NCBI GenBank assembly: GCA_011682535.1
Contig: JAACEL010000002.1
Coordinates: forward strand, 1 to 35,372
DNA: 35,372 nt
Reading direction: 5' to 3'
DNA from: Nitrospiraceae bacterium
Lineage (GTDB): Bacteria > Hydrogenedentota > Hydrogenedentia > Hydrogenedentales > SLHB01
Notes under the pieces: model-generated
What the model saw: the letters and a program-made list of their open reading frames with translations, nothing else
Database searches by the model: none
What the model was told of the DNA's origin: nothing
Program-made: the position numbers and the translations under genes
Part shown: one piece after another, positions 15,581 through 33,392 of the stretch
How positions within the stretch are numbered: position 1 is the first letter of the stretch
Layout of the letters: every line of letters starts with the position of its first letter

Positions 15581-18500
15581 CTAGGCGCGGGTCGCGTTTC
15601 TCCGGACGATCAGGCCCAGGGCGAACGAGAGGGCGAACAGCGTCGTGCCTAGTGATAACCACATTGCACGGCCGCCGCCAGCGCCGATCTCGATCGAGAC
15701 CGTGTTGCCCAGCGCGAGTTCGATGGCCTGGCCAAGCTGCATGACGCCGGCGTGGTTGACCTGAATCTCGATGTAGGTCTGGCCGTCTACGTCCACCGTG
15801 CGCCGACTCTCGGGCGCCATCCACCCGACTACGTTATCGGCCGGGTACCAGCCTTGGTGGCTGGTGGTTTCGCTGTAGTAGTAGATGTCGAGGGCGTCCG
15901 CGCTGACACCTGCCGGTACCGGCAGTTGCAAGGTCAACGGTTCGGCGAAGACGCCGGCCGGCTGCACGCGGTATACCGACGACTGCGGCGCGGCGATCAC
16001 TTCGGGAAGAGCCTCAATACTGTCGACCTCGACCAACTCGGGTACGTTGTCCAGCGCCTTGTCCGCGGCGATGAGGAAATCCTTGGACAGCGGGCCGATG
16101 ATGTCGCCATCGACGGTGACGGCGCCTACGGTCAAGGTGACGCTTTCACCCGGTGCAAAGGGTTCCCCGGGCTCGAAGACCACCCAGCCGTCGTTCTCGG
16201 CGTCCGCGGCCAGCCAGGCGCCGCCGGAGGCGAACCAGCCGCCGCCCTCGGCCACGGCCCAGGCGGACTCGGGGTCGATGGCGGCTTCGGCCGTCACACG
16301 CACGGCCAGTGAAGCGGTTGCGGCAGCCTTGGCGAGGGGAGAGTCCTCGACGCTCAACGGCATCGAAGGCTCGGAGATTTTCTCGTCGAGGCGCTTGAAG
16401 AGCTGCCCGCAGATTCCGCCAGGTTCGTCGATGGCCGACTCGAGCAGGAAGGTCACGGCGATCTGTTGGCCGAGGACGGTGGTCACGTTGCGTGTCTGCG
16501 GGGCGTAGTCCTGCGCCGAGACGGTCAGCGTGTAATCGCCCGGCCGCACGTTGGTGAAGGTGTAGAGTCCGTCCACGCTGCTGGTGAGCACCCGGCCCGG
16601 CGGGTCGAGGCGGACCGAGGCGTCGAGAATTGGGTCGAGGGACTCGGAGTCGCGCACGCTGCACACGATTGTGGAGCGCTGCTCGAAGTATTCGAACGCG
16701 TCCACCGCGGTGACCGCGCCACCCAGCGTGGTGACGGTTACGTCGACCCATTCCGCGGTGGTGTGGGCGGGCGTCAGTATTTCGATCTCCGTGTCAGTGA
16801 CATTGACGATCGTAGCGGCTGCGGTGTTGAATTCCACCGATTGCGCCGTTGCGAGCGCAGTGCCCTGGACCAACACGGTGTCGCCGCCGGAGATGTGTCC
16901 TTCGTCTGGCGACAGGGCGCTGATGGTGGGCACGCCCAGGTACTGATAGGCGTCTTCCACCCGGTGTACGCCGGTCGTCGTGGTGACCTCGACGGCTACG
17001 AAGCCCGGAGCGTTGGGCGGCGCAACGACTTGCAGGCGCGTTTCTTCGGCCGACAGGATCTGTGCGGCCACGCCGCCGAAGGTGATGGAGCGGGTGAGGG
17101 CCAGGTTGCGTCCACGCACGGAGAGCACCTCGCCGCCGACGGCCTTACCCACGCTCGGGGTGATGGCGCCCAGTTCGGGCGGTCCCGGCGGTTCGACGAA
17201 CATGAATCCGGCTACGGCGACCACATCGCCCATTGGCGTGGTGACGTGCACGTCGACAACGCCGCGTTCGTGAGGCGGGGTAAGTACCTCGAGCACCGTG
17301 TCGGAGGCACCGACAATCGTGGCCGCTTCGCCGCCGAATGTGACGGCGGTTGCCTCCGCGAGGCGTCCACCGAGGATGTCCACCGCCTCGCCGCCGAGGA
17401 TGGTGCCCTTGGCGGGGCTCAATTCGCCCAGGAACGGGATCTGACGGAAGACGGCCTGCACGTTTTTGTCGTCGTCCATGGTGATGACGGTGGGATTGGC
17501 GCCGCCTTGCAGGTCGCCCTGCCACTGATCGAACACCCAGCCCTCGGCGGGGGTCGCGATCAGGGTGATCTGCTTGCCCTCCGCATAGACGTACGCGCCT
17601 GGCGGCGGGTTGACGGTGTTCACGCCGCCGCCGCCGATGATATTGCCGATCGTGAGCGTATAGGTGACCGGAGCGGCGGCGAACACCGCCGTGATGGTCT
17701 TGTCGCCGTCCATGGTGATGGAGGTCGGGTTGGCTTCTCCGGTGAGGTTTCCCTTCCAGTGGTCGAACACCCATCCGCTTTGCGGTGTTGCCGACAGGGG
17801 CACTGGCGTGCCTTCGAAATAGCGGTAGAAACCGGCGGCGGGTTGAATCGTGCCGTTGCCCTCGACAACCGTGGCCAAGGTGTAGTCGAAACCGTCTTCC
17901 ACGAAGACGGCGACCACGTTCTTCGGTCCGTCCATGACGATGGTGAACGGGTTGGCCGCGCCTGGAGGCACGTCGCCCTCCCAGCGATCGAACACCCAGC
18001 CCAGTTGGGGAATGGCGTCGATGCTGACCGGGGTGTTCTCGGTGTACTCGCCGTTCTCGCCCACCGGATCGACCTGGACGTCACCGCCGCCTATGGTGCT
18101 GGTCGTCAGCGGATAGAGCGGGCCTCGTTCCACGAAGAAGGCCGTGACGGTCTTGTCCGCGTTCATGACCAGTGTGATGGGGTTCAGGCCGGCCTGCGCG
18201 AGGTCGATGTCGCCTTCCCAGTGGTCGAACAGCCATTCGTCGTCCGGGAAGGCCGTGATCAGTACTTCAGCGCCTTCGCTGTAGTCCGTCTCGCCGGTGG
18301 GCGTGGTCGTGCCATTGCCGCTCACATCGACCGTCAGTGTATAGGCGCCGGCTGCTTCGAGGAATACGGCCGTGGCGCGCTTATCCGCGTCCATCGTGAC
18401 CACGACGGGGTTGTCGGTTGCCGTCACATCGCCTTCCCATCGATCGAACACCCAACCTTCCGCCGGGGTGGCCGTCAGCGTGACTTCGGTGCCCTGTGAA

Positions 18501-20128
18501 TAGGCGCGGGTGCCGGCCGGCGGCTCCACGGAGCCTTCGCCGCGTACCGCGGTGGTCAACTGATAGGTTTGCCCGTGCTGATCGCAGGTACCGTCGAATT
18601 CCACGAGCACCTCGCGCTCGATGAGCGAGGGGATGTCGAAGCAGAGATTCTCCTGGCTCAACTGGTTGCCGCGCAGGTCGACGCGATCCTGCACAAGGGG
18701 GCTCCCCGTCGGTCCGAGACCCGTGTTGGCGACCAGCGCGCTGATGTCGCTGATCTTGTTGTTCGTGAGCGACAGCACGGTGAGATCCGGCAGACCCGCC
18801 AGCGGCGACAGGCCCGTGATCAGGTTGTCGCCGAGGATCACCACGGCCAGATCCGTGAGGAACGTCAGCGAGGTGATGTCGCTGACCATGTTGCCCGACG
18901 CGTCCACGAATACCAGGTCCTTCATGCCCTGTACCGGCGTGAGCGACGAGATCTGGTTGTCCCACAGTCCCAGGCGCATGACTTTGGTCAGATTCGTGAC
19001 GGGCGTGATGTCGCTGACCATGTTGCCGCCGATGTCCAGTTCGATCAACTCGCGGAAGTCGTCGACGATCCCGATGTTGGCGATTTGGTTGTTGCTGAGG
19101 GTGAGTCGGCGCAGGTTGCGCATCAACCGGAGATCCTCCAAAGCGGCGTCATCCAGTTGGTTGTCGTGCAGGAACAGGGCCAGCATCCCGCCCAGATTCT
19201 CGATACCGCTGAGGCTCGTCAGCTCATTGTCTTGCAGTTCCAGGTAGCTCAGGCCGTACAACTCGTGGATAGGCGTCAAGTCGCTGATGCGGTTGCCCGC
19301 CAGATACAGGGAAGTGATCTTGCCCAGTCCCGACAGTGCGGTGAGGTCGCTGATGCGGTTGCCGCCCAGCAGCAGCATTTCCAGGTTGATGCACGCTTCC
19401 AGTCCCTTGAGATTCTCGATGCCCTTATCGGAAGCGTCGAACGCTTCCAGCCGCGCCAGGTCGACGTCATAGAGATCATCCAGCGGCGAGAGGCCCAGGA
19501 ACAACAGCAGTTGTTTCTTGAGGTTCGGGTCGGGCACGTCGACCAGCAGGCGGCCGCATTCACCTTCGGAGTACACGGTCACTTCGAGCGCCTCGAGCGC
19601 GGGAATGATGGTGCATAGGCCTTCCTGGTTGATGAGGTTACCCGTGACGTTGAGGATATCGCCTGCGCCCAGCGCCGGGTGGCCCGACAGCGGGGAGAGA
19701 TCAACGAGCTTGTTGTCGTGGAAGAACAGGAAACGTAATTCGAGGAGGCCGGCCAGCGGTGAGAGGTCGGAGATCTGGTTCTCCCACATGTAGATGTCGC
19801 GTAACGCAGGGAGCGAAGCGAGCGGAGCGATGTCGTCGATGGCGTTGCCGTACAGGTACACTTCGACGAGGTCGGTGCAGTACTCGAGCCCGGTGAGGTC
19901 TTCGATGCCCCGGAAAGTCGCGTTGAGCGAAGTGAACCCTACGCCGACGAGATCGGTGTCCTCGATGGGGCCCGATGGCTTTCCGATCGTGGTACGGATG
20001 GCCTGCTCGAGGCTGACATCGGGAAAGGTCACCTCGAACGCTTGCACCTGACTCGGGATCACGATTGCCGCGATGGCCAGCAACACCACGCCCGACAAGC
20101 CTTTACAGTCCATTAACGCTCTGCGCAT
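15581..20128 (-). CDS. Large surface protein: internalin-like LRRs, 5 divergent InlB B-repeat-like domains, 3 IPT/TIG domains, carboxypeptidase-regulatory-like domain, C-terminal TM anchor
   Basis: Signal peptide ending VQA; FPDxxL caps; LxxLxLxxNxIxDLxPL repeats. Five Y-x-L...GW[VL]FDxWxG...NP...MD repeats (~17447-18565); three SPxxGxxxGG..V IPT starts; DGLYTFTNVRPGDYTL; hydrophobic tail followed by RR. Confidence 0.88.
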   Translation of the reverse strand: MRRALMDCKGLSGVVLLAIAAIVIPSQVQAFEVTFPDVSLEQAIRTTIGKPSGPIEDTDLVGVGFTSLNATFRGIEDLTGLEYCTDLVEVYLYGNAIDDIAPLASLPALRDIYMWENQISDLSPLAGLLELRFLFFHDNKLVDLSPLSGHPALGAGDILNVTGNLINQEGLCTIIPALEALEVTVYSEGECGRLLVDVPDPNLKKQLLLFLGLSPLDDLYDVDLARLEAFDASDKGIENLKGLEACINLEMLLLGGNRISDLTALSGLGKITSLYLAGNRISDLTPIHELYGLSYLELQDNELTSLSGIENLGGMLALFLHDNQLDDAALEDLRLMRNLRRLTLSNNQIANIGIVDDFRELIELDIGGNMVSDITPVTNLTKVMRLGLWDNQISSLTPVQGMKDLVFVDASGNMVSDITSLTFLTDLAVVILGDNLITGLSPLAGLPDLTVLSLTNNKISDISALVANTGLGPTGSPLVQDRVDLRGNQLSQENLCFDIPSLIEREVLVEFDGTCDQHGQTYQLTTAVRGEGSVEPPAGTRAYSQGTEVTLTATPAEGWVFDRWEGDVTATDNPVVVTMDADKRATAVFLEAAGAYTLTVDVSGNGTTTPTGETDYSEGAEVLITAFPDDEWLFDHWEGDIDLAQAGLNPITLVMNADKTVTAFFVERGPLYPLTTSTIGGGDVQVDPVGENGEYTENTPVSIDAIPQLGWVFDRWEGDVPPGAANPFTIVMDGPKNVVAVFVEDGFDYTLATVVEGNGTIQPAAGFYRYFEGTPVPLSATPQSGWVFDHWKGNLTGEANPTSITMDGDKTITAVFAAAPVTYTLTIGNIIGGGGVNTVNPPPGAYVYAEGKQITLIATPAEGWVFDQWQGDLQGGANPTVITMDDDKNVQAVFRQIPFLGELSPAKGTILGGEAVDILGGRLAEATAVTFGGEAATIVGASDTVLEVLTPPHERGVVDVHVTTPMGDVVAVAGFMFVEPPGPPELGAITPSVGKAVGGEVLSVRGRNLALTRSITFGGVAAQILSAEETRLQVVAPPNAPGFVAVEVTTTTGVHRVEDAYQYLGVPTISALSPDEGHISGGDTVLVQGTALATAQSVEFNTAAATIVNVTDTEIEILTPAHTTAEWVDVTVTTLGGAVTAVDAFEYFEQRSTIVCSVRDSESLDPILDASVRLDPPGRVLTSSVDGLYTFTNVRPGDYTLTVSAQDYAPQTRNVTTVLGQQIAVTFLLESAIDEPGGICGQLFKRLDEKISEPSMPLSVEDSPLAKAAATASLAVRVTAEAAIDPESAWAVAEGGGWFASGGAWLAADAENDGWVVFEPGEPFAPGESVTLTVGAVTVDGDIIGPLSKDFLIAADKALDNVPELVEVDSIEALPEVIAAPQSSVYRVQPAGVFAEPLTLQLPVPAGVSADALDIYYYSETTSHQGWYPADNVVGWMAPESRRTVDVDGQTYIEIQVNHAGVMQLGQAIELALGNTVSIEIGAGGGRAMWLSLGTTLFALSFALGLIVRRNATRA

Positions 20129-20436
20129 TGCTGTCTCCTCGTTCCTGAACGCCTAGAGCCCCCCGTAGCGTTTCGCGCATTCCTACCAAAGGGTCGGCCT
20201 TACTGCGAGTTTACGTTTTCTGATGTAATTTGTAAAGAGATTTTACCCTAAGTCGCCCTTTCAACACCAGTTAAATCGACGCAATCGGACCCCAACAGAG
20301 ACTGTTTGGTCCCTGTTTTTGGGTTCGGGCCTCTCCGTCGAGGGGGAGCGCAGGGCAGGTTACTGAGGAAACGATCGCCAGGCGGCGCGGTAGGATGAAG
20401 GATGTAGTACACGGCAGTAGTCTGGAGGATTCTTGT

Positions 20437-21075
20437 ATGACAAAGAGCGCAAACGCCCGGAATATGCTGTTGATGACCGCTGTGATCGTTGGTTTTGGAC
20501 TGGCCGGTATGGGATGTTCGCCAACGATCCCGTTCGCGTTCGACATCTCTATCAACTTGGGAACGTATGACTTGAGTGCCCTGCAGGTCTACGCGGGGCT
20601 GTTCGCCGGGGCCGAGATTCCCGAGGATTTCGAGGCGCCTGCGTTACCCGTGTGCAACTTGCCCACACAGGAGGAGATCCGGGAGCTGGTGAGCGAAGCC
20701 GCTGGCGATTGGGTGGCTAACCTCATTCATCTCAAGGCGATGAACCTGGTTGCGACCGAACTCACGGCCATATCGGGCGATTTCGACGACCTCACGTACC
20801 TCTCGTTGCAGTGGCAACCCAAACCGTTGGGTGGTGTGGCCCAGCCCTCCGTGAACCTCGGCACGGCCGATTCGGCGTTGGGGCTTGGCACGCAAATCCT
20901 GTTGGGGCCGCCTGTTCCGGTGGATTTCCTGGCACTGATCGAGGATGACGCCGCCAACCCGGCGACGGAGTGTGCTTCGTTGGGCATCGACGTGGACGGC
21001 GTCGTGCCCAGCACCGTCCCCGTGATGGCGGTGACGGTCACGTTGAACGTCGTTGGCGAGGTCCGGCTGCGCTGA
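20437..21075 (+). CDS. Hypothetical lipoprotein
   Basis: GGAGGA RBS + ATG 20437; basic N-terminus, hydrophobic core, LAGMG-C lipobox-like site; no family recognised. Confidence 0.7.
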   Translation: MTKSANARNMLLMTAVIVGFGLAGMGCSPTIPFAFDISINLGTYDLSALQVYAGLFAGAEIPEDFEAPALPVCNLPTQEEIRELVSEAAGDWVANLIHLKAMNLVATELTAISGDFDDLTYLSLQWQPKPLGGVAQPSVNLGTADSALGLGTQILLGPPVPVDFLALIEDDAANPATECASLGIDVDGVVPSTVPVMAVTVTLNVVGEVRLR

Positions 21076-21104: not shown

Positions 21105-21133
21105 TTGACGGTTGGTGCGGGGGGGCGCACAAT
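21105..21133 (+). promoter_or_regulatory. Putative sigma70 promoter TTGACG-17-CACAAT for the amr operon
   Basis: -35 at 21105-21110, -10 at 21128-21133; lies upstream of the GAGGTG Shine-Dalgarno and GTG 21154. Confidence 0.5.
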
Positions 21134-21153: not shown

Positions 21154-22125
21154 GTGACCGTCCAATGTGAATTGTGCCCCAAGAACTGCGTGATCGCGCC
21201 TGGCCAGAGCGGTGAGTGCCGGATCCGGGTGAATGTGGACGGGCAACTGCTGGCGGTCACCTGCGGGTACCCGTGCTCCGTGCACGTGGATCCCGTCGAG
21301 AAGAAGCCGCTGTACCATTTCCTGCCCGGGTCGAGCATTCTGTCCATTGCCACCGTTGGCTGCAATCTGCACTGCAAGAATTGTCAGAACTGGGAGATCT
21401 CGCAGGAGGATCCGGAAAATGTGCGGGCACGCGAGTTGCCGCCCGCCCTGTTGCCCGAACTGGCCCGCCAGCAGGACTGTGAATCGGTGGCCTACACCTA
21501 TACTGATCCCTGCGCCTACTATGAGTATGCGCTCGACGGTTCAATCGCCGTGCGCGATGCGGGGCTCCGGAATGTGTTGGTGACGGCGGCCTACTGCAAC
21601 CAGGAGCCCTGGAAACGCTTGTGCGCGTACACGGATGGCGCCAATATCGACATCAAATCGATATCGGACCAGTTTTACCGGGACATCTGCTCGGGCCGCC
21701 TGGCTCCGGTGTTGAATGCGTGCGTGGCGGCGAAGTCGATGGCGGTGATGGTGGAGATTACCAATCTGGTGATCCCAACGCTCAACGATTCGGACGATGA
21801 TCTGCGCGAGTTGTGCCGCTGGATCGTCGAGAATCTAGGCAAGGATACGCCGCTGCACTTCTCGCGGTTTTTCCCCCACTACCAGATGCGCAATCTCCCG
21901 CCGACGCCGCCTGAAACGCTCGACCGTGCCAGGGCCATCGCGCTGGCGGAGGGGTTGTACTACGTTTACATCGGCAACCTGTCGCGGCCGGAGGCCGAGC
22001 ACACGTACTGCCATTCCTGCAAGGCGGTCTTGGTGAAGCGCCGAGGCTACCGGGTACTGGAAAACACGGTTCGCGCGGGGGCCTGTCCCCAATGCGGCAC
22101 GGAGGTCTACGGCGTATGGCAATGA
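21154..22125 (+). CDS. amrS: AmmeMemoRadiSam system radical SAM enzyme
   Basis: N-terminal CELCPKNC...GECR, DPVEKKPLYHFLPG, radical SAM GCNLHCKNCQNWEISQ, AYTY, TNLVIP, TPLHFSRFFP, YVYIGN, C-terminal CHSC/CPQC. GTG 21154 is 7 nt after GAGGTG. Confidence 0.92.
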   Translation: MTVQCELCPKNCVIAPGQSGECRIRVNVDGQLLAVTCGYPCSVHVDPVEKKPLYHFLPGSSILSIATVGCNLHCKNCQNWEISQEDPENVRARELPPALLPELARQQDCESVAYTYTDPCAYYEYALDGSIAVRDAGLRNVLVTAAYCNQEPWKRLCAYTDGANIDIKSISDQFYRDICSGRLAPVLNACVAAKSMAVMVEITNLVIPTLNDSDDDLRELCRWIVENLGKDTPLHFSRFFPHYQMRNLPPTPPETLDRARAIALAEGLYYVYIGNLSRPEAEHTYCHSCKAVLVKRRGYRVLENTVRAGACPQCGTEVYGVWQ

Positions 22126-22292
22126 AACGCAGGAGCTTTATCGAGGCGGTGATCGCCGCCCCATGGGTGTGGCTGGCGGCATGCGTGGCGCCGCGCCGCT
22201 GGCGCGAGGCGGTGCGATCACGGCATTATCCCGGACCGGTGGCGCCGCTCGACCCGGCTGAGATCCGGCGGCGGGGCCGGTGGGCGGGGTGA
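22122..22292 (+). CDS. Small (56 aa) protein with twin-arginine motif and lipobox
   Basis: ATGA overlap with the amrS stop (alternative ATG 22116 after GGAGGT); MKRRSFI...WVWLAAC; fills the gap up to amrB/A. Confidence 0.65.
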   Translation: MKRRSFIEAVIAAPWVWLAACVAPRRWREAVRSRHYPGPVAPLDPAEIRRRGRWAG

Positions 22293-22310: not shown

Positions 22311-23885
22311 ATGCGGCGGCAACAGCGGGAGCACAGGGTTGGGGCGGCTAGTGTGGCGCGATTCGTGACGGTTTGGACGTTTATGGCGGTCGCGATCTCT
22401 TGCCGCGAGGAGGTGGCCGCCCGGGAACCGGAGGCCGGACCGGTGAAGCGCGTGCTGACGTCCGCCTTGGCGGGGCGTTGGTATACGGACGACGCGGCGG
22501 AGCTTTCCGAGGAACTGGACGGATACCTGGACTCGGTGGATGCGGAGCCGTTGGCGAACGTCCATGCGCTGATCCTGCCTCACGCGGGATACCGCTACTC
22601 CGGGCAGGTGGCCGCGTACGGTGTCAAACAGTTGGCGGGCCAGTCGTTCAAACGGGTCGTGGTGCTGGGGCCATCGCACCGTTTGCGGATGGCCAACCGG
22701 GCGAGCGTGCCGTCGGCCACGCACTATGCGACGCTGCTCGGCGAGGTCCCTCTCGACCTGGACTTCATCGCCGCTCTCAAACGTCATCCCCAGTTCGTGA
22801 CGGTGCCTGAAGCCCACGATGGCGAGCACAGTGTGCAGATCGAGGTGCCGTTACTGCAACGGGCGCTGGGCGCGTTCACGCTTGTGCCGATTGTGGTCGG
22901 CCAGCTTGACGCGGACACCGCGCGCGCGATGGGCGGGATTGTGAAGGGACTGTTGGGGCCGGACACGCTCGTCGTAGTCAGCAGCGACTTCGTCCACTAT
23001 GGGTCGCGGTTCGACTACGTGCCGTTCAAGGACGACGTGGCGGAGAACCTGAAGAAGCTCGATCTGGGCGCATGGGAGTTTATCGAGCGGCGCGATGTGG
23101 CCGGGTGGTATGACTACATTGACGAGACGGGCGCGACCATATGCGGCAGGCACGCGATTGCCGTGTTGCTGCCCATGTTGCCGGACGACTCATCCGCCCA
23201 TCTGCTCCGCTACGACACGTCGGGCCACATTACCAATGACTGGAGCAACTCGGTAAGCTACCTGAGCATCGCGTTCAGGTGTACGTGGGAAAGGGGAACA
23301 CCGATGGAAGCCGAGAAGCCGGACACCGCCACTCTCTCCGAGGACGAGAAGAAGCAGTTGCTGTCCTTAGCGCGGGGGACGTTGGAGTACTATGTCGAGC
23401 ATGACCGCATGCCCAAGCCGGCGGATCTGGGGGTAGCGATCACGGCGGGAATGGAGCAGGTGATGGGCGCGTTTGTGACGCTGCACGAGCACGGACGGCT
23501 GCGCGGCTGCATCGGCGAGATCTTCCCGCGGCGCCCGTTGTACGAGGCCGTCATGGACCACGCCGTGAATTCCGGCATGCGCGACCATCGGTTCACGCCA
23601 GTTGTGGCCGAAGAACTGCCCTTGCTGCACTACGAGATCTCCGCGTTGACGGTTCCCGAACCTGTCGCTTCCTATGAAGACATCGAGATCGGACGGCACG
23701 GCATGGTGATCGAGAAGAACGGGCGTACGGCGGTGTTCTTGCCCCAAGTCGCCCCGCAACAGGGCTGGGACATCGCCGAAACGCTCACTCAGTTGTCGCG
23801 TAAGGCCGGACTGCCCGGCGATGCCTGGAAGGAGGGGGCGGCGTTCACGGTTTTCGAGGCCATCGTGTTCGAGGAGGCGCAGTAG
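22311..23885 (+). CDS. amrB: AmmeMemoRadiSam protein B (MEMO1-like) fused to protein A (AMMECR1-like), with predicted lipoprotein signal
   Basis: MEMO motifs AGRWY, ILPHAGYRYSG, LGPSH, EHS, SSDFVHYG, TICG. AMMECR1 motifs GAFVTL, LRGCIG, DHRF, EISALT, FLPQV, KAGL. N-terminal basic/hydrophobic segment ending VAIS-C. Confidence 0.92.
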   Translation: MRRQQREHRVGAASVARFVTVWTFMAVAISCREEVAAREPEAGPVKRVLTSALAGRWYTDDAAELSEELDGYLDSVDAEPLANVHALILPHAGYRYSGQVAAYGVKQLAGQSFKRVVVLGPSHRLRMANRASVPSATHYATLLGEVPLDLDFIAALKRHPQFVTVPEAHDGEHSVQIEVPLLQRALGAFTLVPIVVGQLDADTARAMGGIVKGLLGPDTLVVVSSDFVHYGSRFDYVPFKDDVAENLKKLDLGAWEFIERRDVAGWYDYIDETGATICGRHAIAVLLPMLPDDSSAHLLRYDTSGHITNDWSNSVSYLSIAFRCTWERGTPMEAEKPDTATLSEDEKKQLLSLARGTLEYYVEHDRMPKPADLGVAITAGMEQVMGAFVTLHEHGRLRGCIGEIFPRRPLYEAVMDHAVNSGMRDHRFTPVVAEELPLLHYEISALTVPEPVASYEDIEIGRHGMVIEKNGRTAVFLPQVAPQQGWDIAETLTQLSRKAGLPGDAWKEGAAFTVFEAIVFEEAQ

Positions 23886-24059: not shown

Positions 24060-27000
24060 ATGATTGGGGGAAGGGGAGTCTCGGCGGAACGGCCGGCGGG
24101 CCGGATGATCGCGGTCGCGGGGCTGGGCTTCTTCGCGCTTGTCGCGCAGACGCTGTTGTTCCGCGATTTCTTCACGGTCTTCGAAGGCAGTGAGCTGGGG
24201 GTGGGCGCCTTCTTTGGTTCGTGGTTCATCTGGGTGGCGTTGGGGGCGTTGGCGGGGCGGATACCGTCGCGCTTACACGACGCGGCCGCCGGGCATGTGC
24301 GCGTGTTGGCCTTGCTGTACATTCCCGCCTTCGTCTTGCAGCACAGCGTCGTGTTGCACACGCGCGAACTGGCCGGGGTCGAGGCCTACGAACTGTTTCC
24401 CTTCGCCCCGATGCTGATTGCGTCCTTCGCGGTGAACGCCCCAACCAGTTTTCTCACCGGGTCGTTGTTCGCGCTCGCGTGCCGGTGGGTGGCGGAGCAA
24501 TCGAAGCATGCCGTATCGCGCGTTTATATCAGCGAGACGCTGGGGGCATGCGCGGGTGGAGTGTTCGTGACGGTGCTGCTCGTGTGGGGACTGCCGGGCG
24601 AGGCCGTGTTTGCGGCGGCGGCTTGGGCTCTGTGCGCGGTCCTGGGCGTTTCGGCGATGCTGACCGGTTGCCGCCTCCGCGCGGGGCTGGCGATTATGGC
24701 CGTAGTGGGGATGCTTGGGGCTGGGCTGTTCTGCGGCGGCGTGGGTGCGCGCTGGGCGGACTACGAGCAGCGCGCGGCCTGGTCGCGGTTGTTACCGGCG
24801 GAACAATACGGCGGGAGCTTCTCGACGGCGCAGTCGCGGTATCTGTACGGCTGGCGTGAGAATCAACTCATGGTGATCTCGGGCGGCGGCGTGAGCGAGA
24901 CGTTCCCCGGGGATGATCAGGCGGGGGCGGTCGTCGCGTTGCACATGGCGCAGCGGCCCGAGGCGCGCAACGTGTTGGTGTTCGGCGAAAACGCCCTGGG
25001 CATTTGCGCGGCGTTCAAGATGCTTCCGCAGATCCAGCACGTGACCTGGCTGCATCCGGATCGGGCCTATCCCAGGACGTTGATGGAAGCGTTGGCGGAC
25101 GAGGGAAGATCCGCGGCCGGGCCGGACGAGATTCCCCAAAAGGACATTCGCACGTTTGCGCGTGAAACGCAGCGCCGGTTCGATCTGATTGTCTTGAACT
25201 TGCCCGACATGACGACGCTCGTGCTGAACCGCTACGCCACCGTGGAGTTTTTCACGCTGATGGCGTCGATTCTGGAGACAGATGGACTTGTGTCCGTGCG
25301 GGTGTCGGGGGGCGAGAACTATGTCGGCGGCGAGCTGGCGTTGCTGGGCGCTTCGATGCTCGACACGCTCGATGCGGTGTTTCTGAAGACGATCCTGACG
25401 CCTGGTGAGGACACGTGGTTCCTGGCTGCGAACGGCGGCGGCCTGATGGAGCGCCCGGAGTGGCTGGCGCGGCGCTATGCGGGGATCGAGGGCGCCAGTG
25501 CGGTGTATCCGCCGGAGGGTGTTCGCGGGTTGTACCGGCCGGGCCGGGCGGCGTTCCAGATGGACGCGTACCGCGCGGCGATGGCCGAGACGCCGCGGAA
25601 TCTGCTGCGTAACACTGATCGCTCGCCGAAGGCGCTGGCGTATAACCTGTTGCTGGCTGTTAAGCAGGCCGAGTGGCGGCGGTTGGCCCGGTCGCTGCCT
25701 GCGTTGTGGCGGGTGGGACCCTGGCTGTTGGCTGGGCCGGTACTGCTATACGCCCTGCTGCGTCTGGTGTTTTTGCTCAAGACACGGTGGACGACGGGTG
25801 ACGACGGCGTGACCGATTTGAAGTTCCTGGTGTTTACGATGGGTGTGGCGAGCATCTCGCTGAGCATCGTTCTCATGTTTCTGTATCAAGTGCAGTTCGG
25901 GACGTTGTTCCTGCACATGGGTGTCATTACGGCGCTCTTCATGGCTGGTTCGCTTGTCGGAGCGATGGGAAGCGCGCGCTTCCTCACGCGATGGCCCCGG
26001 GGGCCGCTGTTGGTGTGCCTGACCGGTCACCTGTTGCTGTTTGGGGGCGTGGCCTTGCTGCCCGGCGCCGCTTCGCGCGGGACGTACGCCGGACTGTTCG
26101 CGCTGTGCGGTGCGTTCACCGGCGTGTACTTTCCTATCGCGGCGGCGCGGCTGGCGGCGGCCGGGGCGCCGGTGCGTGCGAGCGGTGCGGGACTCGAGAT
26201 GCTCGACCATCTCGGCGGAGCCGTGGGGGCTTCGCTGACGGGATTGGTCCTGCTGCCGATGTGGGGCGCCACGGCGGCCCTGGGCGTGCTGGCCCTGTTG
26301 GTGGGCGTCAACGGTCCCTTGCTGGCATTGAGCCGGACACCCAAGACGCGGGGAGACGCGTTTGACCGCCTGGTGCGTCCAGCCGCCTACGCGACCGCAG
26401 GGGTGGCCATCTATCTGCTGGGTGTGTCGGCCGCGGTGGCACATGGCGAGCCGGCCACAATGGGCGATCCGGTGGTCGATGCGGCGCGCACCATGGCGGG
26501 GGCCACCGAACTGGAGTCCAAGGAAGCTGTGCTGCCGGATGGGACGGCGGTGGTCTACTTCGCCGTGACCGAGTCCGACGACCGCGCCAAGGGCTATGTG
26601 TTCCCCTGCGACCCGTGGGCGTCGAAGGTGTACGGTTATCTTGGCCCTATTCAACTCGCGGCCTACACCGACGCGCAGGGCGTGCTGCTGGATTATGCGG
26701 TGTTGCGTTCGTATGAGACGCCATCTTATCTGTACCACGTGGAATCGTTTCACGACCGCTTGATGGGAGCGAGTCTGTTCACCGCGGGGCCATTCGACGG
26801 CGTGGACGCCGTCAGCGGGGCAACGATCACCGACGTGGCGATTCGCAGGACGCTTACGTTGGCGGGGCAGGGCTTTGCCCGGGACGTGCTGGGCGTGAAC
26901 GGCGAACTCGAGCCTGCACCCGCGCCAAGCGCGGCCGACTTCTTTGGTAGCACCGGCTTTCGTGATTTCGCCGTGTTGGCCGCACTCACGCTCGCCGCCA

Positions 27001-27935
27001 TACTCCACCGGTATCGGCCCCGTGTGTGGTCGCGGCGCGCGATCCTGCTGACGAGTCTGTTGGCGGCGGGCCTGTGGCTCAACCTGCAGTACTCGACGCA
27101 ACAGGTGATATCCCTGGCGGGATTGACCCTGGGCGGTGTGGTGCTCAATGGCCCCTTCTTTCTATTGGTCGTTGTGCCGGTGGTTGTGGTCCTGTTCGGG
27201 AATGTGTACTGCGGGTACGTGTGTCCCTTTGGCGCGCTGCAGGAGCTTGTGGGCGACCTGGCGCCCAAGCGTCTGCGCGGCGGTGTCGACAAGCAAGCTT
27301 GGCGCTACGGCCGGGCGGTGAAATATGGGCTGCTGTTCCTTGTGTTGGCCGCCTTCGCGCTCACGCGCGACTATGGCCGTCTCGAGGCCGACCCCCTGGT
27401 CAGTGTGTTCGGCATGGCTCGGGAGCGGCCCGTCGTCATCATCGTTGTGTTGAGCGTGGCGCTTTCGCTCTTCTACAAGCGCTTCTGGTGCCGGAATCTG
27501 TGCCCGGCGGGGGCGTTTCTCTCCTGGCTGAACGGCGCGCGGCTCCTGGGGCGCCTGATCCCCCGGCGTTACCCGGAGCGGTGCGACCTGGGCGTGCGGA
27601 GCAATGCCGAACTGGACTGCATCATGTGCGACCGCTGCGGCTGGACGCGCCCGGAGACCTCCCGAAGCAGGCGCGTGCTGATGGTCCATGGCGTGTGCGT
27701 GGCGGCGGCCGCGGCGATCTTCGCGGGCGCGATGTTCTCAGGAGAGCCCCCGGTCGAGGCGGGATCGGCCGTGCCCGGCATCGGCGAAGCCGATGTGCCC
27801 ACGGGGGCCGGTCAAGCGCGTGACGTGGACGCGGAACGTATCCGGACACTGATCGACCAAGGCCACCTGTCCGGCCGCGAGGCCGAGTACTATGGGCCGG
27901 TATCCGCCGACGGCCCGGCGCCGGACATGCCTTGA
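24060..27935 (+). CDS. Polytopic membrane protein: MFS-like TM / spermidine-synthase-like domain / TM / FMN-binding (flavinylation) domain / NosR-NapH-type 4Fe-4S domain
   Basis: QTLLFRDFFTVFEGSEL and VYISETLGA (membrane SpeE-fusion type); FDLIVLNLPD...NRYATVEFF; GYLGPI, ETPSY, DAVSGAT; YCGYVCPFGALQE, FWCRNLCPAGA, CIMCDRC. Start may be 24105. Confidence 0.8.
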   Translation: MIGGRGVSAERPAGRMIAVAGLGFFALVAQTLLFRDFFTVFEGSELGVGAFFGSWFIWVALGALAGRIPSRLHDAAAGHVRVLALLYIPAFVLQHSVVLHTRELAGVEAYELFPFAPMLIASFAVNAPTSFLTGSLFALACRWVAEQSKHAVSRVYISETLGACAGGVFVTVLLVWGLPGEAVFAAAAWALCAVLGVSAMLTGCRLRAGLAIMAVVGMLGAGLFCGGVGARWADYEQRAAWSRLLPAEQYGGSFSTAQSRYLYGWRENQLMVISGGGVSETFPGDDQAGAVVALHMAQRPEARNVLVFGENALGICAAFKMLPQIQHVTWLHPDRAYPRTLMEALADEGRSAAGPDEIPQKDIRTFARETQRRFDLIVLNLPDMTTLVLNRYATVEFFTLMASILETDGLVSVRVSGGENYVGGELALLGASMLDTLDAVFLKTILTPGEDTWFLAANGGGLMERPEWLARRYAGIEGASAVYPPEGVRGLYRPGRAAFQMDAYRAAMAETPRNLLRNTDRSPKALAYNLLLAVKQAEWRRLARSLPALWRVGPWLLAGPVLLYALLRLVFLLKTRWTTGDDGVTDLKFLVFTMGVASISLSIVLMFLYQVQFGTLFLHMGVITALFMAGSLVGAMGSARFLTRWPRGPLLVCLTGHLLLFGGVALLPGAASRGTYAGLFALCGAFTGVYFPIAAARLAAAGAPVRASGAGLEMLDHLGGAVGASLTGLVLLPMWGATAALGVLALLVGVNGPLLALSRTPKTRGDAFDRLVRPAAYATAGVAIYLLGVSAAVAHGEPATMGDPVVDAARTMAGATELESKEAVLPDGTAVVYFAVTESDDRAKGYVFPCDPWASKVYGYLGPIQLAAYTDAQGVLLDYAVLRSYETPSYLYHVESFHDRLMGASLFTAGPFDGVDAVSGATITDVAIRRTLTLAGQGFARDVLGVNGELEPAPAPSAADFFGSTGFRDFAVLAALTLAAILHRYRPRVWSRRAILLTSLLAAGLWLNLQYSTQQVISLAGLTLGGVVLNGPFFLLVVVPVVVVLFGNVYCGYVCPFGALQELVGDLAPKRLRGGVDKQAWRYGRAVKYGLLFLVLAAFALTRDYGRLEADPLVSVFGMARERPVVIIVVLSVALSLFYKRFWCRNLCPAGAFLSWLNGARLLGRLIPRRYPERCDLGVRSNAELDCIMCDRCGWTRPETSRSRRVLMVHGVCVAAAAAIFAGAMFSGEPPVEAGSAVPGIGEADVPTGAGQARDVDAERIRTLIDQGHLSGREAEYYGPVSADGPAPDMP

Positions 27936-27991: not shown

Positions 27992-29374
27992 ATGATCGAT
28001 CTGCTCAAGCACGGTGAGAAAATTCTGTCGACGGCGTTGGCCAACGGCGGAGGACTCGCGGAGATATTTCTAGAAGACACGTCGCGCACGTCGATTCGTT
28101 TCGAAGACGGCAAGGCGGAGCGTGTGGTCTCGGGGCGGGATCTCGGCGCGGGCATTCGCATTCTGACGGGCGACCGTACCCTGTTCGCCCACACCAATGA
28201 CGTGTCGCTGGCCGGATTGATCCAAGCCGCGAAGACGGTGGCCGGGGGCGCAAGCGAGGAACGCGGCACGTATTCCTTCGACTTCCAACCCGAGCGTTTT
28301 GAAATGCCGGTGGGCGTGGCGCCAGGAAGCGTGTCCACGCCTCAGAAGCTCGGCCTGATCACGGCGGCCGACAGCGCCGCGCGCGCGTTCGACGGACGCG
28401 TGGTGCAGGTCAAGGTCATGTATGGCGACTCCGTGCGCCGTGTCCTGATTGTCAACTCCGACGGACGTTTCGTGGAAGATGTCCGCCCGCAGATTATCCT
28501 GATGGTCGAGGCCGTGGCCGCCGATGGGAGCGTGATCCAGACCGGCCGTCGCCCGCTGGGGGGCGCTTTGGGTTTTGAACTGTTCGACGAGACCGATCCG
28601 CAGGACATTGCCGAGGCCGCGGCCAGGCAGGCGTGCCTCATGCTCGACGCGCAACCGGCGCCCACGGGACAGATGCCCGTCGTCATCGGCAGCGAAGCGG
28701 GCGGCACGATGATCCACGAAGCGGTCGGCCACGGACTTGAAGCGGATCACATCGACAAGGGCATGTCCAAGTACTGCGGGCGTCTCAACGAGATGATTGC
28801 CGTGCCCGAGGTTACCGTGGTCGACGACGCCACCCTGGCGCGCAAGCGCGGCACGTTCAACGTCGATGACGAAGGCACGCCTGCACAGCGGACGGTGCTG
28901 ATTGACCAGGGCCGCCTCGTGAGTTTCCTGCACGACCTCAAGTCGGCGCGCAAGATGGAGATCGCGCCCACGGGCAACGGCCGGCGGGCGTCCTACCAGG
29001 ACAAGCCGATCCCTCGCATGACGAACACGTTCATTGCGCCCGGCGATGCCGATCCCAAGGAAATACTCGCTTCGACGGACAAGGGGCTGTATGTGCGCAA
29101 GATGGGCGGTGGCCAAGTCGATCCGTTGAACGGCGATTTCGTGTTCGAGGTCAGCGAGGGCTACCTGATCGAGAACGGCGTGGCCGAAACGCCCGTGCGT
29201 GGCGCGACGCTCATCGGTAACGGCCCGGATGTGATTCAGAATATCGAGTTGGTGGGTAACGATCTCGGTTTCGACATAGGCACGTGCGGGAAGGGCGGCC
29301 AAGGCGCGCCCGTCAGCGACGCCCAGCCCACTATCCGCATCCGCGAACTAACCGTCGGCGGCACGGCACAATAA
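27992..29374 (+). CDS. tldD: TldD/PmbA family metalloprotease (catalytic TldD type)
   Basis: GAGIRI, HEAVGHGLEAD (HExxxH), DDEG, TGNGRR, PRMTNT, GGGQV, VRGATLIG, CGKGGQ..PVSDAQPT. Confidence 0.93.
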   Translation: MIDLLKHGEKILSTALANGGGLAEIFLEDTSRTSIRFEDGKAERVVSGRDLGAGIRILTGDRTLFAHTNDVSLAGLIQAAKTVAGGASEERGTYSFDFQPERFEMPVGVAPGSVSTPQKLGLITAADSAARAFDGRVVQVKVMYGDSVRRVLIVNSDGRFVEDVRPQIILMVEAVAADGSVIQTGRRPLGGALGFELFDETDPQDIAEAAARQACLMLDAQPAPTGQMPVVIGSEAGGTMIHEAVGHGLEADHIDKGMSKYCGRLNEMIAVPEVTVVDDATLARKRGTFNVDDEGTPAQRTVLIDQGRLVSFLHDLKSARKMEIAPTGNGRRASYQDKPIPRMTNTFIAPGDADPKEILASTDKGLYVRKMGGGQVDPLNGDFVFEVSEGYLIENGVAETPVRGATLIGNGPDVIQNIELVGNDLGFDIGTCGKGGQGAPVSDAQPTIRIRELTVGGTAQ

Positions 29375-30470: not shown

Positions 30471-31541
30471 ATGTACAACGGACTGAATCTTAGCCTGGGT
30501 AACCTCTGCCTGCTGTCCGACGCGAAGACGCGCTCGATCTCGCCCGAGAATTTCACGGGTGAAAAGGGCAAGGGCGGCATGGCCACCGAAGGCACCGGCG
30601 CCAAGTGCGCGCGCGACCTTGGGCAAGGCTGGAAGATCTCGCCGAGCGTCGCCGTCAAGGCCGGCGAGGTCTTCGAACTGGCCGTCATCGAAGGCCCGGG
30701 GGCCATCCAGCAGATCTGGATGACGCCCACCGGCAACTGGCGCTTCAGCATCTTGCGCATCTACTGGGACGGCGAAGAAGAGCCGAGCGTGGAATGCCCT
30801 ATCGGCGATTTCTTCGGGATGGGGTGGGGACAGTACGCCCATCTGAACTCGCTGCCCGTCTGTGTCAACCCCGGCAGCGCGTTCAACTGCTATTGGGAGA
30901 TGCCGTTCCGCAAGCACTGCCGCATGACGTTCGAAAACGTGGCCGACGAAGACATGACGCTCTATTACCAGATCAACTATGCCCTTACGGAGGTGGCCCA
31001 AGACGCCGCCTACTTCCACGCGCAGTGGCGGCGCACCAATCCGCTCGAGTACCTGGACGTGTACACTATTGTCGACGGCATCCAGGGTAAGGGCCAGTAC
31101 GTAGGCACCTACATGGCGTGGCAGGTCAACAGCACTGGGTGGTGGGGCGAAGGCGAGATCAAGTTCTTCATGGACGGCGATGACGAGTATCCCACGATCT
31201 GCGGCACGGGTACGGAAGACTACTTCTGCGGCTCCTACAACTTCGACCGCAACGGCCAGTACACCGAGTTCTCGACGCCGTTCGCGGGGCTGCCGCAGGT
31301 CATCCGTCCCGACGGCACCTATCAATCGCAGCAGCGCTTCGGTCTCTACCGCTGGCACATCATGGACCCGGTCCGTTTCGAGAGCGACCTGAAAGTCACC
31401 ATGCAGGCGCTGGGCTGGCGTTCCTACGGCCGCTACCTGCCACTGAAGGACGACATCGCCTCGGTGGCCTACTGGTACCAGGCCGAGCCCCACGGCGCGT
31501 TCCCGAAACTGCCGGAGCGTGACCTCCTGGAGAACATCTAA
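30471..31541 (+). CDS. DUF2961 / glycoside hydrolase family 172 protein (paralog 1)
   Basis: RSISPENFTGEKGKGG, GPGAIQQIW, LRIYWD, PIGDFFG, FNCYWEMPF, YFHAQWRR, WWGEGE, GTGTEDYF, YRWHIMDP, DIASVAYWYQ. Confidence 0.93.
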   Translation: MYNGLNLSLGNLCLLSDAKTRSISPENFTGEKGKGGMATEGTGAKCARDLGQGWKISPSVAVKAGEVFELAVIEGPGAIQQIWMTPTGNWRFSILRIYWDGEEEPSVECPIGDFFGMGWGQYAHLNSLPVCVNPGSAFNCYWEMPFRKHCRMTFENVADEDMTLYYQINYALTEVAQDAAYFHAQWRRTNPLEYLDVYTIVDGIQGKGQYVGTYMAWQVNSTGWWGEGEIKFFMDGDDEYPTICGTGTEDYFCGSYNFDRNGQYTEFSTPFAGLPQVIRPDGTYQSQQRFGLYRWHIMDPVRFESDLKVTMQALGWRSYGRYLPLKDDIASVAYWYQAEPHGAFPKLPERDLLENI

Positions 31542-31648: not shown

Positions 31649-32743
31649 ATGACTAATGGACTGAATATGGGACTCGGCAATCTTTCCCGCCTTTTCGGGG
31701 GGGTCACCCGCTCGCTGTCGGCCGAGAACATCAACGGAGAAAAAGGACGCGGCGGCATGGCCACCGAAGGACGCGGATCTTTCAACGCCCGCGGCCTCGG
31801 CGGGCGTCCGTGGAAAGTGTCCCCTGCCGTCGACATCGAAGCCGGCGACACCTACCTCATGGCCGATGTGGACGGCCCCGGCGCCATCCAGCAAGTCTGG
31901 ATCACGATCACGAAGGCTTGGCGTCACAGCGTTCTCAGAATCTACTGGGACGACGAAGACACGCCCAGCGTCGAAACGCCGATCGGTGATTTCTTCGGCA
32001 TGGGCTGGCAGGAATACGCCCATCTCAACTCCATTCCCGTGACGGTGAACCCCGGCAGCGCCTTCAACTGCAACTGGGTGATGCCGTTCCGCAAACACTG
32101 CAAGATGACCATCGAGAATCTCGGCGACGAGAAGATCACCCTCTTCTATCAGGTGAACTACGCCCTGGCCGAGATCCCCGATCGCGCCGCCTATTTCCAT
32201 GCCCAGTTTCGGCGCACCAACCCGTTGCCCTACAAACAGGACTACACCATCGTCGATGGTATCCAAGGCAAGGGACACTACGTCGGCACGTACATGGCGT
32301 GGCAGGCTAACAACAAGGGCTGGTGGGGCGAAGGCGAGATCAAGTTCTTCATGGACGGTGACCAGGAGTTTCCCACCATCTGCGGCACCGGTACGGAGGA
32401 CTACTTTTGCGGTTCGTATAACTTCGAGCCCAATTGGCAGGTGACGGGTTTCCTCGGGAATTACAAGGAGTTCTCGACGCCCTACGCCGGCCTGCATCAG
32501 GTCATCCGGCCCGACGGCACGTTCAACTCGCAACAGCGTTTCGGCATGTATCGCTGGCACGTCATGGATCCAATCCGTTTCGAGGAGGATCTGCGCGTCA
32601 CGATGCAGGCGTTGGGCTGGCGGTCCAACGGACGCTATCTGCCGTTGCAGGACGACATTGCCTCGGTGGCCTATTGGTATCAGGCCGAGCCGCACGCGCC
32701 GTTCCCCCAGTTTCTCCATCGCGACGACCTGGAAGTGATCTGA
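31649..32743 (+). CDS. DUF2961 / glycoside hydrolase family 172 protein (paralog 2)
   Basis: Same motif set as paralog 1, including WWGEGE and GTGTEDYF. Confidence 0.93.
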   Translation: MTNGLNMGLGNLSRLFGGVTRSLSAENINGEKGRGGMATEGRGSFNARGLGGRPWKVSPAVDIEAGDTYLMADVDGPGAIQQVWITITKAWRHSVLRIYWDDEDTPSVETPIGDFFGMGWQEYAHLNSIPVTVNPGSAFNCNWVMPFRKHCKMTIENLGDEKITLFYQVNYALAEIPDRAAYFHAQFRRTNPLPYKQDYTIVDGIQGKGHYVGTYMAWQANNKGWWGEGEIKFFMDGDQEFPTICGTGTEDYFCGSYNFEPNWQVTGFLGNYKEFSTPYAGLHQVIRPDGTFNSQQRFGMYRWHVMDPIRFEEDLRVTMQALGWRSNGRYLPLQDDIASVAYWYQAEPHAPFPQFLHRDDLEVI

Positions 32744-32744
32744 G

Positions 32745-33392
32745 ATGCCCCAACGCCCGCTCGTCGTATTCGACATCGATGGCACGCTGCTCGAGACGGA
32801 TCGCGTGACGGTGCCCGCTGTGCAGCGCACCTTCGCGGCCTACGGACTGCCCGAGCCCGATGCGGGGAAGATCTGCTCGTTCTTCGGCGCGCCAGTCAAG
32901 GACTACCTGGACTGGCTCGCCGAGCTATGCCCGGAGGGGAAGGTGGACGAGATCGTCGACAAGACCAACCGGCTCGAATTGGACCTGATCGCCGAAGAAG
33001 GCCGGCTGTATCCCGGTGTGGAGGCCATGCTGGCCGGTTTGCGCAGTGATGGCTACACGCTGGCCCTATGCTCCAACGGTCCTGAAGACTACGTGGCCGA
33101 GTTCGTGCGAGCGTATGAAATGGAGCGATTCGTGAGCGTCGTTCAGGCGCGTGGCGACCGGCCCGAGGGCAAGCGCGTGATGCTCGGCGAGATTCTTGAA
33201 GCGCTGCACGAGCGTCCGGTGGTTGTCGTCGGCGATCGTCACGACGACGTCGATGCGGCGCACGCGCATGGCGCCCTGGCGATTGGCGCACGCTATGGGT
33301 TCGGGGCGGACGAAGAACTGCGTGAGACCGATGCCCAGGTTGATGCGGCCGATGAAATCGGCATAGTGGTGGCGCGGTTGGTGAAGGGATAG
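32745..33392 (+). CDS. HAD family hydrolase (phosphoglycolate phosphatase-like)
   Basis: VFDIDGTLL, LYPGV, CSN, K, VGDRHDD, YGFG. Confidence 0.9.
   Translation: MPQRPLVVFDIDGTLLETDRVTVPAVQRTFAAYGLPEPDAGKICSFFGAPVKDYLDWLAELCPEGKVDEIVDKTNRLELDLIAEEGRLYPGVEAMLAGLRSDGYTLALCSNGPEDYVAEFVRAYEMERFVSVVQARGDRPEGKRVMLGEILEALHERPVVVVGDRHDDVDAAHAHGALAIGARYGFGADEELRETDAQVDAADEIGIVVARLVKG

Follow-up and report, generated by a model that had tools for sequence, protein, structure and literature searches.

We report that a small open reading frame (ORF) of 56 codons, located between two genes of an AmmeMemoRadiSam system, is a conserved gene, and that the predicted peptide carries a twin-arginine (Tat) signal motif and accompanies a distinct, leaderless form of the radical S-adenosylmethionine (SAM) enzyme AmrS. 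The ORF was found in a 35,372-nucleotide stretch of DNA (referred to below as the window, i.e., the whole stretch that was analysed; positions 1 to 35,372 of the forward strand of contig JAACEL010000002.1, GenBank assembly GCA_011682535.1) from an organism deposited as Nitrospiraceae bacterium and assigned to the Hydrogenedentota (Hydrogenedentia; Hydrogenedentales; SLHB01) in GTDB. Our data lean towards a peptide that acts as the signal-bearing small subunit, or Tat carrier, of this leaderless AmrS. The relevant features of the window are as follows.

21154..22125, + strand: amrS, leaderless "type-1" AmmeMemoRadiSam radical SAM enzyme (TIGR04337 match; GTG start)
22101..22105, + strand: GGAGG, Shine-Dalgarno-like, inside the last amrS codons (direct sequence reading)
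22122..22292, + strand: small ORF, 56 aa (58 aa from the ATG at 22116), proposed Tat-signal carrier subunit of AmrS
22128..22139, + strand: twin-arginine motif R3-R4-S5-F6 of the peptide (alignment conservation)
22140..22184, + strand: hydrophobic h-region of the peptide, residues 7-21, ending in LAAC (lipobox-like)
22197..22289, + strand: basic conserved tail of the peptide, residues 26-56 (YPG ... G-R-W-A-G), predicted AmrS-binding part
22311..23885, + strand: AmrB-AmrA (Memo + AMMECR1) fusion, N-terminal signal and lipobox-like leader (AISC) present (Pfam, TIGR04336, TIGR04335)
24060..27935, + strand: 1291-aa membrane protein, the fourth conserved cassette gene (domain scans)

The translation of the small ORF (22122-22292, +) is identical to the one quoted in the first-pass annotation of the window, with the RRSF motif and the LAAC with Cys21 present, and its ATG (22122-22124) overlaps the amrS stop codon TGA (22123-22125), as had been stated. 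An in-frame ATG at 22116, which gives a product of 58 aa (MAMKRR...), is at least as good a start as the ATG at 22122: it is located 10 nt past the GGAGG, while the spacing to the ATG at 22122 is 16 nt. Roughly half of the database relatives start two residues ahead of K/T-RR. Both candidate starts (M-A-M) are contained in the end of amrS, G-V-W-Q-stop (GGCGTATGGCAATGA, 22110-22125, +), and since the conserved end of AmrS, Y-G-V/I-W-x, limits how the peptide gene can begin, the relatives start with MAM, MEL or MEM. The start of AmrS itself, MTVQC, rests on the choice of the GTG at 21154 over an alternative TTG at 21112; in support of this choice, the AmrS matches in 50 of 50 relatives start with M-x-V/I/L-Q/R-C or within it.

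The region has a guanine plus cytosine (G+C) content of 69-72% and chance ORFs are numerous, the window peptide matches no Pfam or NCBIfam model, and a word-based search with it returned only the peptide itself. The base composition and the missing model match would fit a chance open frame in G+C-rich DNA that is not translated. To define the family, a profile built from nine sequences was searched against 1.84 billion protein cluster representatives, and this identified 296 clusters at E≤1e-3 (56 at E≤1e-10); feature counts given below refer to the best 150 of the 296 matches. All 150 are 52-96 aa long with the alignment reaching the last residue or the one before it, and none of the 10 clusters looked up carries a name. 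All 150 are also called proteins, the window's own included, which contradicts the expectation of the first-pass annotation that gene callers would easily miss the peptide. The tblastn check for homologous small ORFs that had been proposed there gave matches in eight of 40 related genomes (E 1.6e-12 to 7.4e-4), and all eight are located at the 3' end of amrS. Moreover, the ratio of nonsynonymous to synonymous substitution rates (dN/dS) from codon comparison of orthologous ORF pairs, which are not independent, has a median of 0.21 and is <0.5 in 21 of 22 pairs, i.e., the peptide frame is under purifying selection, and the family is found in low-G+C relatives (loci L120 and L121) where the other frames are closed. 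The number of clusters, the dN/dS values, the low-G+C relatives and the presence of the peptide at 78 of 80 syntenic loci (see below) together contradict the chance-ORF explanation, to which we assign a negligible probability; judged from these sequence comparisons, the ORF at 22122-22292 is a real gene.

Three features are constant in the family: the RRxF Tat motif near the N-terminus, a hydrophobic stretch, and a basic tail that contains YPG and terminates in W-x-G. R3, R4 and F6 are invariant in the nine profile sequences, and R4, G38, W54 and G56 in an alignment of 69 sequences. The RRxF motif is present in 135 of the 150 listed members (RRx[FLIVMW] in 147, x-RRxF-[LIVMF] in 112), [YFW]PG likewise in 135, and a C-terminal W-x-G in 148, such that, of the motifs whose conservation the first-pass annotation had proposed to check, RRxF and YPG are family traits, and the C-terminal GRWAG is one in the form W-x-G. 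The net charge of the last 36 residues of the listed members is strongly positive, with a median of +5.5. In the 69 members scanned the tail is matched by no Pfam or NCBIfam model, and a search among proteins of 113-2000 residues revealed no fused form, which is weak evidence.

With respect to AmrS, the window protein scores 366.6 bits against TIGR04337 (cut-off 220), the match beginning at profile position 11. We refer to such proteins as type-1: TIGR04337 matches start at profile positions 9-12, and only 3-4 residues are located ahead of the first Cys in 50 of 50 relatives, which have no signal of their own. AmrS is present in 112 of 133 genomes of the window's class and a peptide match in 28 of the 133, one per genome. 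All 28 are positioned directly 3' of a high-scoring type-1 AmrS gene (alignment from profile positions 7-12), and three further genomes with type-1 AmrS that lack a profile match all carry a divergent peptide (RRxF ... P-x-x-W-x-G-stop). Beyond the class, 80 loci in named genome records were chosen by similarity to the window AmrS (57-73% identity); these are labelled Hydrogenedentota (the closest), Planctomycetota, Verrucomicrobiota, Lentisphaerota, Kiritimatiellia, Desulfobulbales and others. The peptide ORF follows right past amrS on the same strand in 78 of the 80; of the other two, one has a doubtful divergent ORF and one has none. The coupling of a Tat-motif peptide to a leaderless AmrS, first noted in the window alone, is therefore borne out by 28 of 28 class matches and 78 of 80 loci, counts that across relatives are not independent of each other. 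At two loci (L003 and L008) the peptide stays beside amrS even though amrBA is not adjacent.

Two individual loci are of note. One, labelled Myxococcota (L113:3930-4300), has a short ORF past a type-1-like amrS with RRR followed by a hydrophobic stretch; it ends in ...PGNHLAG, has no invariant Trp and is directly followed by the gene for the large membrane protein. This short ORF may be a divergent peptide. The other, labelled Margulisiibacteriota (L102), has no peptide at all. Most genomes of the class, the window's included, hold a second, lower-scoring "housekeeping" AmrS with 25-40 residues ahead of the first Cys, no leader and no adjacent amrA or amrB; the copy in the window's own genome (contig C345:1-1023, − strand; locus L116) adjoins an ORF resembling prolyl-tRNA synthetase.

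The N-terminus of the window peptide, M-K-R-R-S-F-I, is comparable to the Tat consensus S/T-R-R-x-F-L-K, and it is followed by an h-region (residues 7-21, IEAVIAAPWVWLAAC) which in relatives corresponds to Ala/Gly/Leu-rich stretches of 13-22 residues. The Pfam TAT_signal model (PF10518) matches 15 of 69 members and TIGR01409 matches 17. A TatC protein is encoded in the window's genome (TIGR00945, 162.7 bits summed against a cut-off of 132.7). The first-pass annotation described the product as a Tat-motif lipopeptide. Its Tat part holds for the family (RRxF in 135 of 150), while the lipobox part does not: the LAAC is present in the window, and a lipobox-like site past the RR was detected in just 4 of the 150 listed members. 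The lipopeptide reading was consequently rejected as a family trait.

The notion that some AmrS proteins carry their own Tat leader was put forward in the first-pass annotation as a premise, and such proteins exist. Five genomes of the same class (G001, G022, G063, G123 and G127) encode an AmrS with a ...T-K-R-x-F-L-K leader, past which follow a hydrophobic stretch and a linker of ≈35 residues. A search with the N-terminal 100 residues of one such protein retrieved 19 proteins of 382-441 residues, most with a [ST]RRxFLK leader. The 18 that were scanned all score above the TIGR04337 cut-off (328-388 bits), and their alignments start at profile positions 1-3 after an extension of 50-90 residues; TIGR01409 is listed for five of the 18 and is above its own cut-off in four. 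Profile searches revealed neither a peptide match nor a type-1 AmrS in the five sister genomes. Hence, within the sample, i.e., the 133 genomes searched and the 15 AmrS matches with a full N-terminus whose leaders were inspected, fused leader and separate peptide are mutually exclusive, as predicted if the peptide is a carrier.

In three of the five (G022, G063 and G001) the fused-leader amrS is located right past a gene for a membrane-bound spermidine-synthase-like protein, the start of which resembles, by eye, that of the large membrane protein of the window; it is related to the latter but shorter, comprising just the membrane and spermidine-synthase-like parts. We also considered whether the peptide tail is homologous to the linker of the fused-leader AmrS ("EIRRPGRW" compared to "LIRHARSPW", by eye). 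This was rejected: hhalign of the peptide and fused-leader AmrS profiles (probability 23%, E 8.7e-4) aligned the 12-column Tat motif only, and the tail profile scored no better on the five real fused-leader N-termini than on 2000 shuffles.

To model the complex, AmrS (51-row alignment) and the peptide (69-row alignment) were predicted jointly with two 4Fe-4S clusters and SAM. The interaction score (ipSAE, computed from the predicted aligned errors) was 0.92, 0.92 and 0.93, compared to 0.01 for the best of three controls. Among calibration cases, 116 of 157 solved complexes and 2 of 215 mismatched pairs attained the mark, and this calibration holds only roughly because own alignments and riding ligands were used here. 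The runs share at least 96% of contacts, with a partner pLDDT (predicted local distance difference test) of at least 67. In the model the peptide would bind through residues 26-27, 29-33, 35-44, 47-52 and 54-56, with the signal residues 1-25 left free, and AmrS would contribute its N-terminal Cys-cluster region (residues 5-7), residues 25-52, 63-66, 78-82 and 86-95, and patches up to residue 164. The predicted interface comprises 115-118 contacts and involves nearly all of the 31 tail residues. A sequence search revealed no solved relative of AmrS, and it is therefore unlikely that the model recalls a like complex. As to whether the tail replaces the first strand that is missing in type-1 AmrS, the listed model contacts neither show nor exclude it.

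The remaining members of the cassette, which usually has the order amrS, peptide gene, Memo-AMMECR1 fusion gene and gene for the large membrane protein, point to the cell envelope. In the window the AmmeMemoRadiSam set is complete and encoded together with AmrB and AmrA fused (AmrB score 207 against a cut-off of 26, AmrA 153.7 against 99); the fusion protein matches Pfam Memo (E 7e-57) and AMMECR1 (E 1.8e-49) as well as TIGR04336 and TIGR04335. The gene past the peptide encodes this fusion in 49 of 49 cases (48 aligned loci and the window). Ahead of the Memo domain, 48 of the 49 fusions have an N-terminus with positive charge and a hydrophobic stretch; a lipobox-like Cys is present in at least 15 (in the window the leader reads ...FMAVAISC).

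A membrane protein of 1178-1307 residues follows in nine of 10 longer operons. It has spermidine-synthase-like, flavin mononucleotide (FMN)-binding and NapH/NosR-like Fer4_5 parts, which were confirmed in all five proteins scanned; the protein encoded at 24060-27935 in the window combines a spermidine-synthase-like (SAM-fold) part, an MFS-like membrane part, an FMN-binding part and a NapH/NosR-like Fer4_5 part. Going by these domains, the 1291-aa protein might supply electrons and possibly SAM. FMN-binding domains of the NosR, RnfG and NqrC type are located outside the membrane, and NapH-type iron-sulfur parts at its cytoplasmic face. The location of the FMN-binding domain together with the leaders of the fusion proteins would put the cassette largely on the outer side of the membrane, and AmrS is the sole cassette member without a predicted signal.

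The genes past the large membrane protein vary between cassettes. In the window a PmbA/TldD metallopeptidase gene is located at 27992-29374 (+), right past the cassette. We considered TldD as a conserved maturase of the peptide, as the first-pass annotation had suggested, and rejected it; TldD adjoins the cassette in the window alone and follows it in none of nine others.

Taken together, sequence comparisons and one complex model make it somewhat more likely than not that the peptide is a signal-bearing small subunit that serves as Tat carrier of leaderless type-1 AmrS, and this is the most economical reading of the data. In such a scheme the basic tail (≈ residues 26-56, with YPG and the terminal G-x-W-x-G) would, according to the model, wrap onto the folded, iron-sulfur-loaded AmrS in the cytoplasm, and the free N-terminus with RRxF and the hydrophobic stretch would present the pair to the Tat translocase. 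By hitch-hiking on the peptide AmrS could reach the outer face of the cytoplasmic membrane, where it would meet the exported Memo-AMMECR1 fusion (lipoprotein or signal-anchored) and also the membrane protein with its FMN-binding and NapH/NosR-like parts, a possible supplier of electrons.

The proposed location of AmrS outside the cytoplasm is suggested by the sequences of the exported partners and of the fused-leader relatives, and dependence on Tat and co-export are likewise inferences, as are the fate of the signal (cleaved or kept as an anchor) and the route by which SAM would reach AmrS. It is possible, albeit a more tentative proposal, that a whole branch of the radical SAM/Memo/AMMECR1 system works outside the cytoplasm, Tat carrying AmrS by way of a 35-residue clamp to a lipoprotein Memo-AMMECR1 and a NosR-like transmembrane electron conduit. 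With respect to the detached Tat carrier considered in the first-pass annotation, the RRxF motif, the exported partners, the fused-leader AmrS, the mutual exclusivity and the complex model all speak for it. The lipobox as a family trait and TldD, named there as maturase for the substrate alternative, are not supported.

The first-pass annotation alternatively regarded the peptide as a substrate resembling the precursor of a ribosomally synthesized and post-translationally modified peptide (RiPP). According to this explanation AmrS would modify the tail (e.g. at Y36, W54 or G56) in the cytoplasm, whereupon Tat would export the peptide as a substrate or cofactor precursor, and the Memo-AMMECR1 lipoprotein would process or use it. 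A short peptide encoded beside a radical SAM gene and conserved at its C-terminus is compatible with this, and the peptide would be the only obvious molecule linking a cytoplasmic AmrS to exported AmrBA. A precedent is HxsA, a periplasmic effector matured by a radical SAM enzyme (PMC13128918). The complex model is relevant to both readings: W54 and A55 are predicted to touch N79 and Y116 of AmrS beside the C70/C74/C77 (CxxxCxxC) radical SAM cluster motif, which also fits a substrate, whereas the near-complete interface over 31 tail residues with its 115-118 contacts is more subunit-like.

Several observations speak against the substrate. The only domain that Pfam detects in AmrS is Radical_SAM, NCBIfam groups AmrS with glycyl-radical activases, and the Pfam scan revealed neither a peptide-recognition (RiPP recognition element, RRE) nor a SPASM part. 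No protease or exporter is conserved, TldD being absent after the nine other cassettes, and canonical systems function without such a peptide. Moreover, in the sister genomes and in many database members a Tat leader fused to the enzyme takes the place of the peptide, and a substrate is not something that a leader could replace. The substrate alternative is weakened by these observations; we retain it as an unlikely rival.

Another explanation is that the peptide is a membrane tether that is not exported, with its hydrophobic N-terminus inserted in the membrane and its basic tail holding AmrS at the cytoplasmic face beside the NapH/NosR-like iron-sulfur part. According to the positive-inside rule, a tail as basic as this one (median net charge +5.5) could equally well be cytoplasmic, both SAM and reductants are located in the cytoplasm, and the modelled binding to AmrS is equally compatible with this arrangement. 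A tether would, however, require the charged N-terminus to cross the membrane, and it leaves the near-invariant RRxF, the frequent RRxFLK and the TAT_signal matches unexplained, as well as the AmrS members with fused Tat signals that are recognised by models. We consider it improbable, more so than the substrate.

Apart from the tail charge and the contacts near the cluster motif, other points weigh against the peptide as an exported carrier subunit. Just 15-17 of 69 members are recognised by the TAT_signal models, which give no match to the window peptide at E≤0.01 or E≤1, and the leaders in the five sister genomes have KR instead of RR. The family alignments show no conserved clear signal-peptidase site. 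The AmrS-peptide complex is a model with an approximate calibration, which supports binding. Finally, we know of no radical SAM enzyme that acts outside the cytoplasm and SAM is not known to be available there; an exported AmrS would accordingly need a SAM supply that is as yet unexplained.

The carrier-subunit reading can be compared with known systems. In periplasmic hydrogenases, the signal-bearing small subunits HyaA and HybO carry a signal-less metalloprotein partner by Tat hitch-hiking (PMC10924467). The proposed arrangement is similar in that one polypeptide bears the twin-arginine signal and a signal-less metalloprotein rides along in the complex. It differs in that HyaA and HybO are folded iron-sulfur proteins, 100 to more than 300 residues long, that function in catalysis or electron transfer, whereas the AmrS peptide has only ≈35 residues beyond the signal and no cofactor motif, and its cargo would be a radical SAM enzyme. 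No sequence relation of the peptide to hydrogenase small subunits was found; a periplasmic [Fe] hydrogenase small-subunit cluster listed by ESM Atlas (0.79) is no more than a lead. Closer to hand are the fused-leader AmrS (TIGR04337), which belong to the same enzyme family as type-1 and in part to the same class: they have the signal in cis and keep the N-terminal strand (alignments from positions 1-3), while type-1 starts at positions 9-12 and would have its signal in trans.

Other small Tat-dependent proteins share some of these features. TIGR02811, the "formate dehydrogenase region TAT target", comprises proteins of ≤70 residues that consist of a Tat signal and a short, conserved motif at the C-terminus, and their genes adjoin that of a redox enzyme exported by Tat. 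It gave weak matches in five of the 69 peptide members (best E 0.0025, far under the cut-off), probably due to the signal alone, and differs from the peptide in the C-terminal motif and in the partner enzyme. MelC1 is a folded copper chaperone with a Tat signal that carries the tyrosinase MelC2 and is, like the peptide, a signal-bearing helper for a signal-less metalloenzyme; one of the 69 members showed a weak match to it (E 0.029). In Rieske/PetC proteins the Tat signal may remain as an N-terminal membrane anchor (PF25471 gave weak matches in five of the 69), but there, unlike in the peptide, the iron-sulfur protein itself contains the anchor. As a model for the substrate rival only, the HXS system has a radical SAM enzyme acting on a protein whose final location is the periplasm (PMC13128918). 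In contrast to the peptide, HxsA contains HxS repeats and serves as a substrate; the HXS enzymes belong to other families.

The surroundings of the cassette in the window were also annotated. Directly upstream of amrS, an ORF of 226 aa (20395-21075, +) has no Pfam or NCBIfam match, and its N-terminus resembles a lipoprotein signal (...GLAGMGC). Further upstream, 15581-20128 (−) encodes a predicted surface protein of 1515 aa with leucine-rich repeats, five InlB-type B-repeats, three IPT/TIG domains and CarboxypepD_reg. Downstream are tandem DUF2961 paralogues at 30471-31541 and 31649-32743 (+; E 8.6e-99 and 2.5e-98), and past this pair a HAD hydrolase at 32745-33392.

Memo and AMMECR1 are conserved up to humans and their biochemical function is still unknown; Burroughs et al. 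2019 reportedly link Memo to nucleotide-base and isoprenoid modification. That study was outside the scope of our search of literature titles and abstracts, in which we found no description of a Tat-exported radical SAM enzyme or of this peptide. Our best reading is that the AmrS peptide is a Tat hitch-hiker carrier reduced to a signal and a 35-residue clamp, serving a radical SAM enzyme. The unnamed family, with its ≈300 clusters and a tail that no Pfam or NCBIfam model covers, would provide a compact clamp of ≈35 residues as a testable handle on the question whether a radical SAM enzyme can pass through Tat, and annotation pipelines could use it to flag the exported form of the system.

Given their need for SAM and a low-potential reductant, radical SAM enzymes are regarded as strictly cytoplasmic. 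If the reading is true, there would be a conserved export route for a radical SAM enzyme, which would come as a surprise to specialists; radical SAM chemistry would occur on the outer side of the membrane, to which the cell would have to deliver SAM; and an envelope substrate would be implied for Memo and AMMECR1.

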